From Phenylobacterium sp. (GTDB lineage Bacteria > Pseudomonadota > Alphaproteobacteria > Caulobacterales > Caulobacteraceae), in NCBI GenBank assembly GCA_003136395.1, contig PLEH01000283.1, positions 5,208 through 69,207 of the forward strand: a DNA stretch of 64,000 nt, given 5' to 3'. Below, piece by piece: positions 1-25,299 of the stretch. The translations under genes were made by a program, and so were the position numbers. A model generated the notes under the pieces. It was not told the origin of the DNA, ran no database searches, and saw only the letters and a list, made by a program, of their open reading frames with translations. Each line of letters opens with the position of its first letter. The stretch's first letter is position 1.

Positions 1-2643
1 GATCTCGAGCCCGGCGCCCTCTACGAGGCCCTGGCCATCGCCGATATCCAGGCTGCGGCCGACCAGTTCCGCCCGGTCTATGACCGGCTGGGCGGCGCGG
101 ACGGCTATGTCAGCCTGGAGGTCTCGCCCTACCTGGCGATGGACACCGAGGCCACGATCGCCGAGGCCCGACGGCTCTGGCGCGCCGTGGACCGGCCGAA
201 CCTGATGATCAAGGTCCCGGGGACCGACGCCGGGACGCCCGCCATTCGCCAGCTGATCGGCGAAGGCCTCAACATCAACGTCACCCTGCTGTTCGGCCTG
301 GACGCCTACCTGGCGGTGGCCGACGCTCATATGGCGGGCCTGGAGACCCTGATGGCCGCCGGCGGCGATTTCTCCCGCGTCCGCGGCGTGGCCAGCTTCT
401 TCGTCAGCCGCATCGACACCCAGATCGACCAGGCGATCGACCGACGCCTCGCAGCGGGCGCGGGCGTGCAGGCGGGCCATCTGAAAGCCCTCCGCGGCAA
501 GGTCGCCATCGCCAACGCGAAGGTCGCCTATCAGCGCTATCTGGAGATGCTCGAGACGCCACGCTGGCAAGCGCTGGCCGCGGCCGGAGCCGCGCCACAA
601 CGGCTGCTGTGGGCCTCTACCGGGACCAAGGATCCGGCCTATTCGGACATCCTCTACGTCGAGACCCTGGTCGGCCCCGACACCATCAACACCATGCCGG
701 TCAAGACCCTGGACGCGTTCCGCGACCATGGGACGGTGCGGCCGAGCCTCACCGAAGGACTAGATGCTGCGAACGCCGTCCTGGCCGACGCCGAGCGGCA
801 GGGCCTGGACCTGGACGGCGTGACCGATCGCCTGGTGGTCGACGGCGTGCGGCAATTCGCCGAGGCCTTCGACAAGCTGCTGGCCGCCGTGGCGTTCAAA
901 CGCGCCGAGATTCTGGGCGCTCGCCAGAACCGACAGGCGATCACCCTGCCGTCCGGCCTGCAGGGGTCGGTGGATGAGGCGTCGGAGCGGGCGCGGGCGG
1001 AGGGGTGGGGTCGGCGCCTGTGGGCCGAGGATCCGACCCTGTGGACTGGCTCCAATGAGGCCGAAGGGCTGGGTTGGCTCGCGGCCGCGCGGGGCGCGAC
1101 GGTCGACCTCGGGGCGCTGGAGGCTTTCCAGGCCGAGGTGAAGGCCGACCATTTCGCCCATGCGGTGCTATTGGGCATGGGCGGGTCGAGCCTGGGCCCC
1201 GAAGTCCTGGCCGAGACGTTTGGGGCGCAGCCCGGGTTTCCGACGCTGCTGGTGCTCGACTCCACCGATCCCGCCCAGATCCGCCGCCTCGAAGCCCAGA
1301 TCGATCCAGCCACAACCCTGTTCATCGTCGCCAGCAAGTCCGGTTCGACGCTGGAGCCCGACCTGCTGCATCGGTATTTCTTCGAGGTCGCCACCGCAGC
1401 GCTGGGCGAGGCCGAGGCGTCCCGCCATTTCATCGCCATCACCGACGCCGGCTCCCCCCTTGAGGAGACCGCCAGGCGCCAGCGCTTTCGCCGGATCTTC
1501 CCGGGCCTGCCCAAGGTCGGCGGCCGATATTCCGTGCTCACCAATTTCGGCATGGTCCCCGCCGCGGTCATCGGCCTCGACCTGGGCGGCTTCCTGAGCG
1601 CGAGCCAGGTCATGGCGCGCGCGTGCGGACCCAGCGCCCCGCCAGCCGCCAACCCCGGCGTCCAGCTGGGTCTCGTGCTGGGCGCCGCGGCCAAGGCAGG
1701 TCGCGACAAGGTCACCATCCTGGCGTCCGAAGGGATCGCTGGCCTAGGGGCCTGGCTGGAGCAATTGCTCGCCGAGTCCACCGGCAAGGGCGGCCGGGGT
1801 CTCATCCCCGTCGATGCCGAGCCCTGCGGCGCGTGGGAGGTCTATGGTCCGGACCGCCTCTTCATCGACATCCGGCTCGCCGGCGACCCCGCGCCGGAGC
1901 GCGACACGCTCGTCCAGGCCCTCGTGGACCGCGGCCACCCCGTCGTGCGCATCACCTTGGCCAGCGGTGACACGCTCGGACAGGAGTTCTTCCGCTGGGA
2001 GATGGCCACGGCGATCGCCGGGGCGGTGATCGGCCTCAATCCGTTCGACCAGCCCGACGTGGAGGCCAGCAAGGCCAGGACCCGCGACCTGACCGATGCC
2101 TACGAGCAGACCGGAGACCCGCCGCCCGTCGAGCCGATCGCGCGCGGCGACGGGCTCGCCCTCTTCGCCGATGCGCGCAACGCCGACGCCCTTCGCCAGT
2201 CCGCCTCGCGCGCCGCCGTCGAGGCCATTCTCGCGGCGCATTTCTGCCGCGCCCATGACGGCGACTACATCGGATTGCTGGCCTATCTGGATCGCAGCCC
2301 CGAGCACATCGCCGCGCTGCAGGAGGTGCGAAGCTTCATTCGAGATCGCAAGCAGCTGGCCACGGTTCTGGGCTTCGGCCCGCGTTACCTGCATTCCACC
2401 GGCCAGGCCTACAAAGGCGGGCCCAACGCCGGCGTATTCCTGGAAATCACCGCCCAGCCTACCGACGACATCGCCGTCCCGGACCGCCACTTGAGCTTCG
2501 GCGTCGTCGAGGCGACGCAGGCGGCTGGCGACCTGGAGGTCCTGGCGGAGCGCGGCCGGCGCGTCCTGCGGCTCGATCTGGGCCGCGACATCGAAGGCGG
2601 CTTGCAGCGGATGGCGCGCGTCGTCGAGCGCGCCTTGAGTTGA
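1..2643 (+). CDS. Bifunctional transaldolase / glucose-6-phosphate isomerase (5'-partial)
   Basis: Frame open from base 1 ([13 protein letters not shown]); transaldolase motifs [28 protein letters not shown]; PGI half [29 protein letters not shown]. Confidence 0.92.
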
Positions 2644-7143: not shown

Positions 7144-8492
7144 AAACGCCAGTTCAGGCCCGCGCCGAGCACGAAGGCGTCGCCGCTGACCGTGCCGCGC
7201 AGGGAAACGGGCGTGGCCACCGGCGTTCCGGCGAAGGCCACGTCGTTGCGGTTCACCCGGCTCTTGGCGAACGCAATGTAGTCGGCATTTATCTCGACCG
7301 TCGCGCCGCCCGAGAGCGTGTGGCTTGCCCCGAGTCCGAACAGCCACCGGTCGCCGTCGGGGACCCGCGTGCTGCGGCTGGCGTCAGGCGTCGGGGTCGG
7401 GTCGCGCTGCACGCCGCCGCGCAGGGTCCAGTCTGGCGCGAGCGCGTAGTCCGCGCCGAGCGCGACAGTCGTCGTGGACCGGTAGTCCTGCGGCGTGACC
7501 TGCGTGGCGCCGGCGAGTTTGACGGTGATGGCCCTAAACTGGCTCCAGTCGACCCGTTGGACCTGGGCGTTGAGCCACAGCCGGTCGGTCGCCTTCCAAC
7601 GGGCGCCGAGCGTCGCCATGGCGGGCGTGTTGAACGTCGCCGCACCGGCGGCCGCAAGGTCGGAGCCGGCCAGCGGACCGAGCAGCCCTGCGACCGATAC
7701 ATCACCGCGCAAGGTGTGGCCGATCTTCGAGCGGTAGCTGGCCGCAAGCGTCAGCCGGTCGCTCGGATGATATTGCGCGCCGGCGTCCCAGCCGTAGTCC
7801 CAGCCATGGCCGGACAGCCGCTGCAGCGCGTCGGGCGCGAGGGGCAAAAGGTTGGGCAGCGCCTGGGTCAGGGTCGCGCTCGCATATTGCGCGTCCAGGC
7901 CCAGGCCCAGATCGAGGTGATCGGACACACGCGCCGCGCCGAGGACTTCGACGTTGGCGTCGGTCACGCGTGACTTCAGCGCGTCGTAGCGCGTCCAACT
8001 CGCGCCGCCGTACTTGTTGGTGAAGTTGAACGGCGCGGTGACCGAAAATCCGATCGCAAAGCGGTCGCCCAGGGGATAGGCGACCCCGGCGCTGGGCGCG
8101 ACGCCCGGCTGCAGGGTCTTCGATTGCCGGGGCTGGCCGCCGACCGAGGCGGGTGACTGGCCCGGACGCTGAAGCGTCGATCCGGCGTCATCCACCCGAG
8201 CGTCAACCAGGATAGCCTGGCCTCCGACATAGGCCTGCGGGGTCCGAAGTTGCGCGATCGCCGCCGGGTTCCACCAGATGGACTCGACGCCAGTATCCGC
8301 CGTCTCTCCGGAATAGGCGCGACCGGCGCCGCGGGCGGACTGCTCTTGAATGTAGAAGCCCGCCGCGCTGGCCGGTGTGGCGGTCAGGCCGCCCAACCCG
8401 AGGCCGGCGCCGAAGAGCGCCGCCCAACCGACGGTCACCCAAGCCTTGGATCTTTGGCCGTCCGCGCGGCGTGTCGTTTCGGGGTAGTCCAT
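7140..8492 (-). CDS. OmpP1/FadL family outer-membrane transporter
   Basis: [32 protein letters not shown]-terminal LNWRF; ATG at 8492 has AGGA RBS. Confidence 0.88.
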
Positions 8493-20030: not shown

Positions 20031-20885
20031 ATGTCAAGTGTGGCTATACAAAACGACAGTAAGTTAAACCAGCTCCAAACCCTCCTTCCGGAGGGGATGG
20101 TGGTGGACGCTGCCTGGATGGAGCGTCACGGCTACTCGCGCCAGCTGCGCGGCCAGTACGTCTCCGCCGGCTGGCTGGAGCAGCCGGCCGGCCGCGTCTA
20201 CTGGCGTCCGCGTGGCGTCCTGGGCTGGGAAGCCGTCGTCGTCTCCCTGCAGACCCTCCTGGATCTGCCGCTGGTGGTGGGGGGCCGCACCGCCCTGCAG
20301 GTCCAGGGGGCGAGCCACTACCTCGCCCAGGAGATGCGCGAGGTTCACCTCTACGGTCCCGTGGCCCTTCCGACCTGGCTCGCCAAGCTCCCGCTCGGCG
20401 TGACCTTCCGACACCACAACAGCGACCGGCTGTTCAGGCCGGGGGCCTCTCCAAGCAGCCCCCTCAGCGCCGACTTCGAGGTCCACCGCCAAGCGGGCTG
20501 GAGCGCTGAGTCCGTCAAGGCCGTCCGCCAGGTTACCTGGGGCAGCTGGGACCTGCCGATGACGCTCTCCACACCGGAGCGGGCGTTCCTGGAGCTGTTG
20601 GACGAGCTGCCCGACCGGGACACGTTCCACGACGCCGACAAGCTGATGGAGGGCCTGTCCAACCTCAGCCCCCGACGCCTCACCCATCTGCTGACCGAGT
20701 GCCGCAGCGTGAAGGTGAAGCGGCTGTTCTTCTTTTTCGCCGACCGGCACCAGCACGCCTGGGCGAAGCACCTGCGCGCCGCCGACTTCGACCTGGGCGC
20801 TGGAAAGCGCGTGCTGGTCCGGGGCGGCAAGCTCGACCGGCGCTACCAGATCACCGTCCCAGAGGATCTCGATGGCCTATCGTGA
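20031..20885 (+). CDS. Type IV TA antitoxin, AbiEi family
   Basis: KLNQLQTLLPEGMVVDAAWM, GGRTALQVQGASHYL, STPERAFLELL, VKVKRLF, GKLDRRYQITVP. Confidence 0.87.
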   Translation: MSSVAIQNDSKLNQLQTLLPEGMVVDAAWMERHGYSRQLRGQYVSAGWLEQPAGRVYWRPRGVLGWEAVVVSLQTLLDLPLVVGGRTALQVQGASHYLAQEMREVHLYGPVALPTWLAKLPLGVTFRHHNSDRLFRPGASPSSPLSADFEVHRQAGWSAESVKAVRQVTWGSWDLPMTLSTPERAFLELLDELPDRDTFHDADKLMEGLSNLSPRRLTHLLTECRSVKVKRLFFFFADRHQHAWAKHLRAADFDLGAGKRVLVRGGKLDRRYQITVPEDLDGLS

Positions 20886-21807
20886 CCTCTATCAGCGGCA
20901 GGTCGCGCTGCTGATCCGCGTGCTGCCCTATGTGGCCGAAGAGACGGTCTTCGCCCTGAAGGGCGGCACCGCGATCAACCTCTTCGTCCGCGACCTCCCG
21001 CGGCTGTCCGTCGACATCGACCTGACCTACCTGCCGGTGGAACCACGCGACGTATCCCTGGCGGCCATCGAGGCGGCGCTGCTGCGGCTGGCTGACCGGA
21101 TCCGGGCCGCTATCGCCGGCGTGCAGGTCAGCCTCCACCGCCTGCAGCCGGACAACAGCGTCGACAAGCTGCTGATCCAGCTCGGCGTGACCCGCGTGAC
21201 CATCGAGGTGACTCCAGTCCTCCGAGGCTGTGTCTTCGACCCGGTGATGATGACGGTGACCGAACGGGTCGAGGCTGCGTTCGGATTTGCGGAAGCGCAG
21301 GTGGTGTCTTTCGCGGACCTCTATGCGGGCAAGATCGTGGCCGCCCTCGACCGGCAACACCCGCGCGATCTCTTCGACGTCCGGGACCTGCTCGCCCACG
21401 AGGGCCTGACGGGCGACCTGCGCGCAGCCTTCCTGATCTACCTGGTGAGCCACACGCGCCCGATGTCGGAGGTCCTGGCCCCGCACCCGAAAGACATCGC
21501 CCAGGCCTACGAGCGCAGCTTCGAAGGGATGACCGAGACGCCCGTCGCCCTCGACGACCTCATCGCCGCGCGGGCGGCGATCGTGGACGCGGCCGTCGGC
21601 GGGATGCCGGACGCCCATCGCCGGCTCCTGCTGTCCTTCGAGACGGGGGCGCCAGACTGGTCGCTGATCAACTTGCCGCAGGCCGCAGACCTGCCGGCCA
21701 TCGCCTGGCGGCTGCAGAACCTTGCGACCCTGACGCCGAAGCGCCGCGCGGAGCAGGTCGCGCGCCTGCAGGCGGTCCTCTATCCCGCCGGTTCCAGTTC
21801 CGGCTGA
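20872..21807 (+). CDS. Type IV TA toxin, AbiEii nucleotidyltransferase
   Basis: FALKGGTAINLF, PRLSVDIDL, GKIVAALDRQHPRDLFD; overlaps antitoxin. Confidence 0.9.
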   Translation: MAYRDLYQRQVALLIRVLPYVAEETVFALKGGTAINLFVRDLPRLSVDIDLTYLPVEPRDVSLAAIEAALLRLADRIRAAIAGVQVSLHRLQPDNSVDKLLIQLGVTRVTIEVTPVLRGCVFDPVMMTVTERVEAAFGFAEAQVVSFADLYAGKIVAALDRQHPRDLFDVRDLLAHEGLTGDLRAAFLIYLVSHTRPMSEVLAPHPKDIAQAYERSFEGMTETPVALDDLIAARAAIVDAAVGGMPDAHRRLLLSFETGAPDWSLINLPQAADLPAIAWRLQNLATLTPKRRAEQVARLQAVLYPAGSSSG

Positions 21808-22946: not shown

Positions 22947-22966
22947 TGCTTCCCATAAGCTTCCCA
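22947..22966 (+). repeat. Tandem TGCTTCCCA-type repeats (11-bp period), left of att
   Basis: tgcttccca-taa-gcttccca; same motif at 23303-23321. Confidence 0.6.
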
Positions 22967-23111
22967 AATCGTCTTTGGCCCACTCCAGTTTCTCGACAAG
23001 AATGGCCATAACTAGAGGAAATATCATGAGAAGTGGCTTGGTTTAGGGTGGCTAGATCGAAGAAGGGACCTCAGCCGTCGCTAGGAGCGGGGTTTCACGA
23101 GGGGAAACTGG

Positions 23112-23147
23112 TGGTTCCCCAAGTGCTTGATTTCACTTGGGGAACCA
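23112..23147. terminator. 14-bp perfect hairpin abutting the tRNA-fragment 3' end
   Basis: TGGTTCCCCAAGTG-N8-CACTTGGGGAACCA. Confidence 0.6.
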
Positions 23148-23193
23148 TGGTGCCACGACAGGGATTCGAACCCTAGACCTCAGCCTTATCAAG
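23148..23193 (-). mobile_element. att site: 3' half of a tRNA
   Basis: Minus strand C-TTGATAA-GGCTG-AGGTC-TAGGG-TTCGAAT-CCCTG-TCGTGGC-A-CCA; T-arm and CCA intact, no matching 5' half; 180 bp from an integrase. Confidence 0.82.
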
Positions 23194-23302
23194 CCGGGTT
23201 GGAGCCTTTCTGATTTCACGATATTGTACGAAAAATCACTATAAATACATTGTGTTACCCACTTCATTTTTGCGATATTGTTCGCTAGAGTTTTCTCCAA
23301 TC

Positions 23303-23321
23303 TGCTTCCCATGTGCTTCCT
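23303..23321 (+). repeat. Tandem TGCTTCCCA-type repeats (11-bp period), right of att
   Basis: tgcttccca-tg-tgcttcct. Confidence 0.6.
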
Positions 23322-23372
23322 AACCTCGGTGAAATGCAGAGCAAGAAAACGCGGCCCACAGGATATTCGGCC

Positions 23373-24869
23373 ATGCTGGAGAAACGCGCGAAGTTGACCC
23401 GCAGGATCGTGGAGGGCGCCGAGCTGGGCGCCGGCGAACGGTTCATCTGGGACAGCGAGGTTTCGGGATTTGGGGTACGAATCCGCCCCAGCGGCCGCCG
23501 CGGCTATGTCTTGCAGTACCGCTTCGCCGGCCGGACACGTCGCTTTCAGATTGGAACCCACGGGTCCCCCTGGACGGTGGAGACCGCGCGAGACCGCGCC
23601 CGCATTCTGATGGGTCAGATCGCCGGCGGCGAGGACCCGCAAGATGCTAAGAATGGCTCCCGCAAGGAGCTCAATGTCGCTCAACTCTGCGACCTCTATC
23701 TGGCCGAAGGCCTGGCTACCTGCAAAGAGACCTCCGTGGCCTCGGCCCGGTCCGATATCGAAAACCACATCAAGCCCTTCCTCGGGACCAAGCGCGCCAG
23801 CCTGGTCAATCGCCAGGACGTGGACCAGCTCCTGGCCGCCGTCGCGGCCGGCAAGACCCGGCGCACAGTGAAGACCGGCAAGAAGCGCGGGCTCTCACGG
23901 GTGAAGGGCGGCAAGGGCGCCGCCAACTCCGCGGTGGTGACGCTGTCGGCGGCCATGGGCTTCGCGGTGGCCCGCGGCATCCGCCATGACAACCCGGCCT
24001 TCCGGGTGCGGCGGTTCCCGGAGAAGAAGCTCGAGCGCTTCCTGTCGCCCGCCGAGATCGCGCGATTGGGCGAGGCTCTCGCGGCGGCCGAGGCGATCGG
24101 GGTCGAGCTGCCGGCCGCCATCGCGGCCATCCGGCTCCTGATCCTCACCGGCTGCCGCAAGAACGAAATCCTCACTCTGCAGCGGGCGCACGTCGATGCG
24201 CACCACCGCTGCCTGCGGTTGCCCGACAGCAAGACCGGGGCGAAGATCGTCCATATCGGCCTACCGGCGCTCAAGGTGATCGAGGCCATCCCGGAGGTTC
24301 CTGGCAACCCCTACCTCCTGGTGGGCGCCTGGGACGTCGGCCACTTCGTGAACCTGCAGCGGCCGTGGGAGCGGATCCGCGCGGCGGCGGGCCTGGGGGA
24401 CGTGCGGCTGCACGATCTGCGCCACGCGTTTGCGAGCCTCGGCGCCGCGACCGGCGACAGCCTGCTGGTGATTGGGGCGCTGCTCGGCCACCGGAGCGCC
24501 AAGACCACCCACCGTTACGCGCACCTGGCCGAGCACCCGGTCAAGGATGCCGCTGACCGCATTTCAGCCGAGATGTCCCGGCTCCTGGGCGAAAAGGGGG
24601 AGGGCGAGGAGGTCGTGCACGACCCGTTTACGGCGACATCAACGCCAATCGACGATCCGCAAATGCAATCTCTGCTCGGAAGGGTGAGCCACACCCGGTG
24701 GCTCGATACCCAGGCCGCGGCGAACTACGTCGGGCTGTCGATCCCGACGCTTCACACGTACCGGTGGGCGGGCACGGGTCCGCCGAGCCGGAAGATCGGG
24801 CGCCGGATCGTCTATGCGCAGCCGGATTTGGACTCGTGGGTGGCTGGACGAGCTGAGGCCTCCACCTAG
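23373..24869 (+). CDS. int: Tyrosine integrase with N-terminal arm-binding domain and C-terminal excisionase-like HTH
   Basis: IWDSEVSGFGVRI arm domain; catalytic TGCRKNE, DSKTG, LHDLRH, LLGH, RYAH; tail WLDTQAAANYVGLSIPTLHTYRWAGTGPPSRKIGRRIVY. Confidence 0.92.
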   Translation: MLEKRAKLTRRIVEGAELGAGERFIWDSEVSGFGVRIRPSGRRGYVLQYRFAGRTRRFQIGTHGSPWTVETARDRARILMGQIAGGEDPQDAKNGSRKELNVAQLCDLYLAEGLATCKETSVASARSDIENHIKPFLGTKRASLVNRQDVDQLLAAVAAGKTRRTVKTGKKRGLSRVKGGKGAANSAVVTLSAAMGFAVARGIRHDNPAFRVRRFPEKKLERFLSPAEIARLGEALAAAEAIGVELPAAIAAIRLLILTGCRKNEILTLQRAHVDAHHRCLRLPDSKTGAKIVHIGLPALKVIEAIPEVPGNPYLLVGAWDVGHFVNLQRPWERIRAAAGLGDVRLHDLRHAFASLGAATGDSLLVIGALLGHRSAKTTHRYAHLAEHPVKDAADRISAEMSRLLGEKGEGEEVVHDPFTATSTPIDDPQMQSLLGRVSHTRWLDTQAAANYVGLSIPTLHTYRWAGTGPPSRKIGRRIVYAQPDLDSWVAGRAEAST

Positions 24870-25053: not shown

Positions 25054-25299
25054 CTAGACGCCAACTCTGCGCGCTCGAACCCGCTGGAACTGCGGCGGGT
25101 CGCTTCTGAACTGTTCGGCGCGACCCAGCGAGGCGTTGCAGGACGGGCAGCGAACCTCATCCTGATCGGCGAGAGTTGCGCCAACTTCGACTTTCGCCCC
25201 ACACGGCTTGCACTTCCAGCTGGCGTCTGGAGACGAGGTCTGCGGCCGCGGCGGCGGATTCTTGAGATGCAGGACTGGTCGGCGAGGTGGCTCGGTCAT
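25054..25299 (-). CDS. Small zinc-ribbon protein
   Basis: WKCKPCG..VRCPSCN. Confidence 0.65.
   Translation of the reverse strand: MTEPPRRPVLHLKNPPPRPQTSSPDASWKCKPCGAKVEVGATLADQDEVRCPSCNASLGRAEQFRSDPPQFQRVRARRVGV

Follow-up and report, generated by a model that had tools for sequence, protein, structure and literature searches.

The 64,000-nucleotide stretch of Phenylobacterium sp. analysed here (GenBank assembly GCA_003136395.1, contig PLEH01000283.1, positions 5,208 to 69,207, hereafter the window) carries a genomic island whose tyrosine integrase (Int) continues in frame into a winged helix-turn-helix (wHTH) domain resembling RdfS, the recombination directionality factor (RDF) of the Mesorhizobium symbiosis island. 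The fusion is real, arose once and derives from an arrangement in which the integrase gene (int) was followed by a separate wHTH gene. The C-terminal tail probably functions as a tethered RDF-type accessory that acts both in recombination and at the int promoter (Pint).

Domain architecture of the fused integrase

A single unbroken open reading frame (ORF) occupies positions 23313..24869 on the forward strand of the window. Alignment with homologues places the start at the ATG at 23373, giving a protein of 498 amino acids that is terminated by the stop codon at 24867-24869. All three Pfam domains in the protein exceed their own cut-offs; the two integrase domains are listed in Table 1, and HTH_17 is matched over residues 443-493 (E 2.3e-10, 41 bits against a cut-off of 27), covering positions 1-50 of the 51 in the profile. 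The arm-binding domain is modelled by AlphaFold2 (AF2) as a beta-sheet plus a helix with a predicted local distance difference test score (pLDDT) of ~90, and a profile search of the PDB matched it to the N-terminal domain of the “Phage integrase” 3ju0. The catalytic residues R262, K287, H347, R350, H373 and Y382 are all present and are invariant in an alignment of 93 sequences (A1). By these sequence criteria, the protein is a P4/IntS-type arm-binding tyrosine recombinase with an intact catalytic set. PHROGs assigns the integrase to phrog_1 and the tail to phrog_66 (“excisionase and transcriptional regulator”), while NCBIfam returned only sub-threshold matches of the Xer and integron-integrase types. 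The catalytic tyrosine (TAC, 24516-24518) is followed by a further 116 residues. An earlier note on this DNA, made from the letters and their translations, had placed the gene at 23373-24869 and described about 115 residues running from the tyrosine into a complete HTH_17 domain, and both the ORF and the Pfam scan bear this out.

Conservation of the fusion

A search of 5.8 billion protein clusters, from which the best 120 matches (56-91% identity) were taken, revealed that the architecture is not confined to the query strain and defines a whole clade. Nearly all of these 120 clusters are ~500 amino acids in length and 106 of them are already annotated with PF12728, PF13356 and PF00589, under the JGI name [quoted passage not shown]. 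A hidden Markov model (HMM) of the tail detected the C-terminal domain in 119 of the 120, the sole exception being a truncated sequence of 429 amino acids. Named sources among these closest clusters include Phenylobacterium, Caulobacter, Brevundimonas, Sphingomonas and Bradyrhizobium. A homologue search restricted to the tail region gave 13 close relatives, a number limited by the word index and hence not used for counting.

Column conservation over residues 441-480 (0.77-0.87) is the same as in the catalytic domain, and falls to 0.36-0.45 over residues 401-440. The ratio of non-synonymous to synonymous substitution rates (dN/dS), computed by region in comparisons with the two DNA relatives nearest to the query (protein identity 91% and 83%), is 0.06-0.18 for the tail, 0.04-0.07 for the catalytic domain, 0.06-0.18 for the arm and core-binding half and 0.27-0.49 for the linker. 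Residues of the recognition helix and wing of the tail (T459, T462, R464, R473, K474, R477, R478 and Y481) are nearly invariant, and a conserved (V/L)LGxV motif precedes the HTH_17 fold at residues 434-438. These sequence comparisons show that more than 100 protein clusters have kept the tail under purifying selection.

The fusion could in principle be an artefact, arising from a sequencing or assembly error, from loss of a stop codon in this strain alone or from decay of the gene into a pseudogene. The source assembly is in 336 contigs, and a distant relative (L056, described below) does have a stop codon separating integrase and wHTH. Against this, numerous independent assemblies and isolates contributed to the 119 continuous clusters, purifying selection on the tail is strong and the catalytic residues are intact, so that we consider an artefact extremely improbable. 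The earlier note had named a stop between the domains in homologues as the finding that would count against the fusion; no such stop occurs among homologues with at least 56% identity. Read-through and sequencing error are ruled out by the 119 fused clusters together with the low dN/dS of the tail.

Internal initiation at M431, frameshifting or cleavage of the linker could in theory release a free excisionase from this gene and thereby restore a separate RDF dosage, but this is very unlikely. M431 lies immediately before the (V/L)LGxV motif, and an A-AAG-GGG heptamer occurs within the linker, at codons 406-408. However, the other 120 sequences have A, P, T or S in place of M431, which also lacks a Shine-Dalgarno sequence ahead of it, and the linker, heptamer included, is not conserved. 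The internal start that had been suggested at MQSLL (24663) is correctly positioned but is an unlikely start codon, as the methionine is unique to the query and lacks a ribosome-binding site; internal initiation at this residue was rejected because it occurs in the query sequence alone. Programmed frameshifting at the heptamer is likewise unsupported, given the unconserved linker sequence. Regulated proteolysis need not leave any mark in the sequence.

Similarity of the tail to RdfS

In the AF2 model of the full-length protein (pLDDT 81.6) the integrase domains are predicted with confidence, residues 410-438 are disordered (pLDDT below 50) and a compact beta-alpha-alpha-beta-beta-alpha unit follows at residues 443-497. 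Modelled alone, the tail adopts a winged-helix fold with pLDDT values of 89-96. When the PDB was searched with the tail sequence the sole match was RdfS (8DGL; E 1.6e-7, ~45% identity over 53 residues), and the two chains of this structure, 8dgl_B and 8dgl_A, were also the top Foldseek matches, the latter with a root-mean-square deviation of 0.8 A over 50 columns. Lower ranks were taken by 7lwr (a wHTH from a study of a viral DNA-packaging motor), Pukovnik Xis, BldC and wHTH domains of the MerR type. The description of the tail as excisionase-like is therefore upheld, since both its only PDB sequence match and its best fold match are to a proven RDF. The (V/L)LGxV motif sits where RdfS has its alpha1 helix. 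We class the tail as an RDF-type domain and not as an RDF protein, because it is fused in frame to Int and has no conserved internal start.

Excision of the symbiosis island depends on RdfS, which occupies, as a tetramer, 40 bp of attP immediately before intS; the protein also activates the intS promoter (PintS) and acts as a repressor of its own promoter (PMC11963761).

Several of the tail's nearest relatives within 1.8 billion representative proteins (P0121, P0123, P0128 and P0132) are 130-300 amino acids long and comprise two to four tandem HTH_17 repeats. In such proteins, copies of a domain that normally forms head-to-tail oligomers on DNA would be joined covalently into an array.

Origin of the fusion from a two-gene module

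Related loci were collected from a scan of species-representative genomes (80 loci) and a family-level genome search (12 loci). Among these, fused integrases show at least 60% identity to the query and unfused relatives 37-52%. In 36 of the 86 unfused loci the tail HMM detects a separate small tail-like ORF that lies past int in the same orientation, usually 0.8-1.3 kb beyond the integrase core; many of the other loci end at contig edges. The statement in the earlier note that directionality factors are normally separate genes thus holds for the nearest unfused relatives.

The spacing of the two genes varies among these loci. In L006 and L018 one or two small genes separate int from the wHTH gene, and in L053 the wHTH ORF begins ~140 bp after int and is followed by an ORF of 371 amino acids that appears primase-like by eye. 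In a Hyphomicrobium metagenome-assembled genome (L056, region 7342-7440) the integrase ends at a TAG codon (7342-7344) and the wHTH follows in the same frame 75 nt later, with a probable ATG start at 7420 behind a GGAG sequence. At the sequence level this two-gene state is one in-frame stop codon short of the fusion. A maximum-likelihood tree built from the integrase core (FastTree, midpoint rooting) groups all fused sequences into a monophyletic clade with a long stem, nested within two-gene clades, as would be expected if int had fused only once with the partner gene downstream of it.

These unfused alphaproteobacterial modules have homologous integrases with a tail-like wHTH downstream and are sister groups of the fused clade. 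They differ from it in consisting of two genes and in the ends of the wHTH protein: the free partners (alignment A2, L006-L092) all terminate in a conserved STS(E/D/Q) motif ~8 residues past the last helix and lack the (V/L)LGxV motif of the fused domain, whereas the seven fused tails that were aligned lack STS(E/D/Q). One possibility is that this motif contacts the integrase, and its loss fits tethering having taken over part of its function.

The source genome also encodes two unfused paralogous integrases of ~42-45% identity (C30:16972-18126 and C286:5971-7119), and a single free tail-like wHTH gene is located on a third contig (C223:20509-20877).

The attachment site and the DNA upstream of int

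A 90-bp attachment (att) repeat lies ~180 bp upstream of int (Table 1). It comprises the displaced 3' half of tRNA-Thr(GGU), from the anticodon loop to the CCA (23148-23193), and a hairpin with a 14-bp stem (23112-23147). The intact tRNA-Thr(GGU) gene, which marks attL, was found on a separate contig by BLAST against the genome itself (C79:19172-19246, or C79:19172-19290 with its downstream hairpin). ARAGORN and Rfam found no tRNA in the window, because the block is only half a tRNA; it was recognised by eye and by the BLAST comparison. The same tRNA half adjoins int in all eight fused loci for which upstream DNA was read, at ~190 bp from the gene, and is present at a matching distance in Phenylobacterium soli (L001), Sphingomonas (L002 and L004), Caulobacter segnis (L003), L095 and L096. 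Since the tRNA half lies upstream of int, the sequence places int at the attR end, transcribed into an island that runs rightward through the remainder of the contig.

The strongest conserved block in this region is a TGCTTCC doublet 50-70 bp upstream of the int start, which is near-invariant across five loci with 62-91% Int identity. Other conserved blocks in the P arm, between 23214 and 23284, are candidate sites for the wHTH or for host factors, their assignment to a particular protein being inferred. A sigma-70 promoter scan found nothing upstream of int.

A second doublet is located on the far side of the att core, and a 35-bp look-alike of the doublet block is present at an equal offset after the intact tRNA-Thr (C79:19411-19445). 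Together these suggest a tandem insertion, in which the present island sits beside an older relative whose arm forms the DNA left of the core. The genes in this left-hand DNA, which encode AbiE, a pyrroloquinoline quinone (PQQ) dehydrogenase and SdhBCD, may belong to that older island.

Table 1. Coordinates, in the window, of the fused gene, its domains and the elements upstream of it
Feature	Position	Strand	Basis
int-wHTH gene: tyrosine integrase with fused RdfS-type winged helix	23373..24869	+	ORF, Pfam, homologues
Arm-DNA-bind_3 domain (binding of arm-type sites)	23445..23654 (residues 25-94)	+	Pfam PF13356, E 1.4e-12
Catalytic domain, Phage_integrase	24042..24533 (residues 224-387)	+	Pfam PF00589, E 2.4e-14
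Variable disordered linker, ~35 residues, includes M431	24573..24671 (residues 401-433)	+	Conservation, pLDDT, dN/dS
RdfS-type winged helix-turn-helix (HTH_17) tail	24672..24866 (residues 434-498)	+	Pfam, 8DGL, Foldseek, AF2
att repeat (attR core side)	23104..23193	-	88/90 identical to intact tRNA-Thr plus hairpin on contig C79
Doublet TGCTTCC-N4-TGCTTCC, 11-bp period, candidate arm-type site and/or operator	23303..23323	+	Repeat family D1
P-arm direct repeat TTTCACGATATTGTACG (23214-23230) / TTTTGCGATATTGTTCG (23268-23284)	23214..23284	+	Repeat family D2
Conserved CATTGNNTTA block, putative -35	~23248-23257	+	Conserved columns, alignment A3
Second TGCTTCC doublet, P'-arm-like, far side of att core	22947..22967	+	Repeat comparison

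Function of the tail

We propose that this island-family integrase, with its arm-binding, core-binding and catalytic domains, inserts into the anticodon loop of tRNA-Thr(GGU), and that an RdfS-type partner, normally encoded on its own by a small gene after int, is here joined to the C-terminus in frame through a flexible linker of ~35 residues. The tethered winged helix presumably still binds DNA. By analogy with RdfS, its target would be the P arm and the int promoter region beside its own gene, where it probably serves as an accessory DNA-bending factor for recombination and takes a share in the autoregulation of int. An Int tetramer would bring four tails, which equals the stoichiometry of free RdfS on its 40-bp site. 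As a consequence of the fusion the integrase and the RDF-like module are always present at 1:1, and direction would be set by the level of Int, by host factors, by substrate topology or by an undetected processing step, and not by separate expression of an RDF.

Several observations weigh against a tethered accessory of this kind. A tail that is permanently attached to Int cannot by itself be a switch. Residues 429-439 are helical only in the full-length model, with pLDDT below 50, and are non-helical when the tail is modelled alone; this counts against the proposal because the N-terminal alpha1 helix of RdfS is necessary for its activity, including excision, in vivo (PMC11963761). No stretch of the DNA could be assigned to the tail as its binding site. 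Divergence of the tail tracks that of the catalytic domain and not that of the arm domain, so that co-divergence of tail and arm domain, which would have pointed to arm DNA as the target of the tail, was not found (partial r -0.01 after controlling for catalytic-domain identity). Finally, one fused locus (L085, genome G166) carries, immediately downstream of the fused int, a separate HTH_17 gene that is directly followed by a weak match to a MobA/VirD2 relaxase (bases 1-1219, minus strand). The tail is thus not always the only such protein of its element, and the free HTH_17 protein of L085 may be the true RDF, with the tail doing something else.

This last locus is one of several observations that would suit a tail acting only as a transcription factor, in the manner of AlpA or RdfS, that autoregulates the int promoter or activates island genes from outside the recombination complex. 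HTH_17 and AlpA-type proteins are frequently regulators, RdfS likewise acts on promoters by activating PintS and repressing its own (PMC11963761), phrog_66 is named for both activities, and the stretch from the att core to the int start, which must hold the promoter, contains the conserved doublet and footprint blocks. Nevertheless, a regulator would have no obvious gain from being tied 1:1 to a recombinase, and the closest characterised relative is directly required for excision, beyond its effect on int expression (PMC11963761). The P-arm promoter region is moreover recombination arm DNA, and since promoter and arm share the same DNA the two roles are hard to separate. On balance we regard a purely regulatory tail as rather unlikely.

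We attach slightly less weight still to the possibility that the tail is a non-directional anchor, a second binder of arm-type DNA that is needed equally for integration and excision and exerts no RDF-type control. Constitutive attachment does mean that the tail is present in both reactions, and TGCTTCC doublets flank the core on both sides. A separate RDF-like gene was also not found in most fused loci: the sequence analysed around each locus lacks a second tail-like ORF in 10 of 11 cases, and in the source genome no second HTH_17 or Phage_AlpA gene was detected on the contigs of the island, the PF05930 genes of this genome being located on other contigs. However, arm sites are already served by the Arm-DNA-bind_3 domain, the homologues of the tail are free small proteins of the RDF type, and tail and arm domain do not co-diverge.

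A bolder version of the tethered accessory is a single-polypeptide machine for integration and excision, in which the four winged helices of an Int tetramer bound to the att sites would come together along the P arm as a filament resembling that of RdfS, allowing the island to be excised with no separate directionality factor, direction being set only by Int concentration, DNA topology or regulated cleavage of the linker. We consider this improbable as a whole; if true, it would constitute a form of directionality control not previously described for tyrosine integrases.

Comparison with known systems

In the current account of tyrosine integrases, the choice between integration and excision is decided by the presence or absence of a separately expressed RDF. 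The fused clade amounts to a natural experiment on this rule, in which an RdfS-type domain has been joined to the integrase and kept under selection while a free copy has mostly been dispensed with. If the tail acts in recombination, then either one protein both excises and integrates or an undescribed control step exists, and either outcome would be of interest to those who study mobile islands and those who build recombinase tools.

The closest characterised counterpart is IntS with RdfS of ICEMlSymR7A from Mesorhizobium japonicum R7A (PMC11963761, PMC9527761), which likewise pairs an arm-site-dependent tyrosine integrase with an HTH_17 winged helix; in both systems the integrase gene adjoins the attachment site of the integrated element. 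In contrast to the fused tail, RdfS is a free protein of 89 amino acids whose gene belongs to a conjugation operon that is controlled by quorum sensing and located far away from intS. The Phenylobacterium island further differs in targeting tRNA-Thr(GGU), in the lack of conjugation genes in the part of it that was scanned and in the absence of a confidently predicted counterpart of the RdfS alpha1 helix.

Islands of the P4 family, such as CP4-57 (IntA/AlpA) and P4 (Int/Vis), encode an Arm-DNA-bind_3 integrase whose target is the 3' portion of a tRNA-type gene, and their small wHTH partners of the AlpA type promote excision or int expression from separate genes. Here the wHTH is fused and matches HTH_17, the Phage_AlpA profile (PF05930) giving no match to the protein up to E 1 in Pfam. 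An engineered fusion of a serine integrase to its RDF, phiC31 Int-gp3, was reportedly described by Olorunniji et al. in 2017 and is said to use a flexible linker and to switch the enzyme to excision. It resembles the present protein in placing recombinase and directionality factor in one polypeptide with a flexible linker, but it is artificial, the recombinase belongs to the serine family and the RDF binds the integrase instead of DNA.

Full-text literature searches found no paper describing a natural fusion of a tyrosine integrase with an RDF (excisionase). The parts of the protein are of known kinds and the architecture is present in public annotation, under generic names only. A survey of tyrosine recombinases used HTH_17 solely to find separate Xis genes (PMC8138268).

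Distribution and island content

The fused family is patchily distributed, being present in four of 201 Caulobacteraceae species genomes (the query included) and absent from all 400 further genomes that were drawn from across the class. The query island exceeds 43 kb, its far end lying on another contig, and carries rhodanese, redoxin, ApbE and efflux genes. The cargo elsewhere includes CBASS in L001, AbiH in L002, AbiEii in L003 and an acyltransferase in L004. Widely differing cargo, for sulfide detoxification here and for CBASS or Abi defence elsewhere, is moved by a single conserved int-att module at tRNA-Thr, which gives these islands ecological relevance as well. As the earlier note had remarked of the genes following int, no conjugation or replication genes were identified among the 20 island or flank proteins scanned. 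The locus with a separate HTH_17 gene, L085, has the look of an integrative mobilisable element in which an rdfS-type gene precedes a relaxase gene.

An AbiEi/AbiEii toxin-antitoxin pair recurs near this integrase family, being located left of the att half in the window (20031-21807) and at L096:6733-8546; at L003:7996-8943, to the right of int, only AbiEii was identified. Just downstream of int in the window, on the reverse strand (25054-25299), is an ORF of 81 amino acids that would encode a zinc ribbon (CxxC...CxxC) with a weak match to Zn_ribbon_8.

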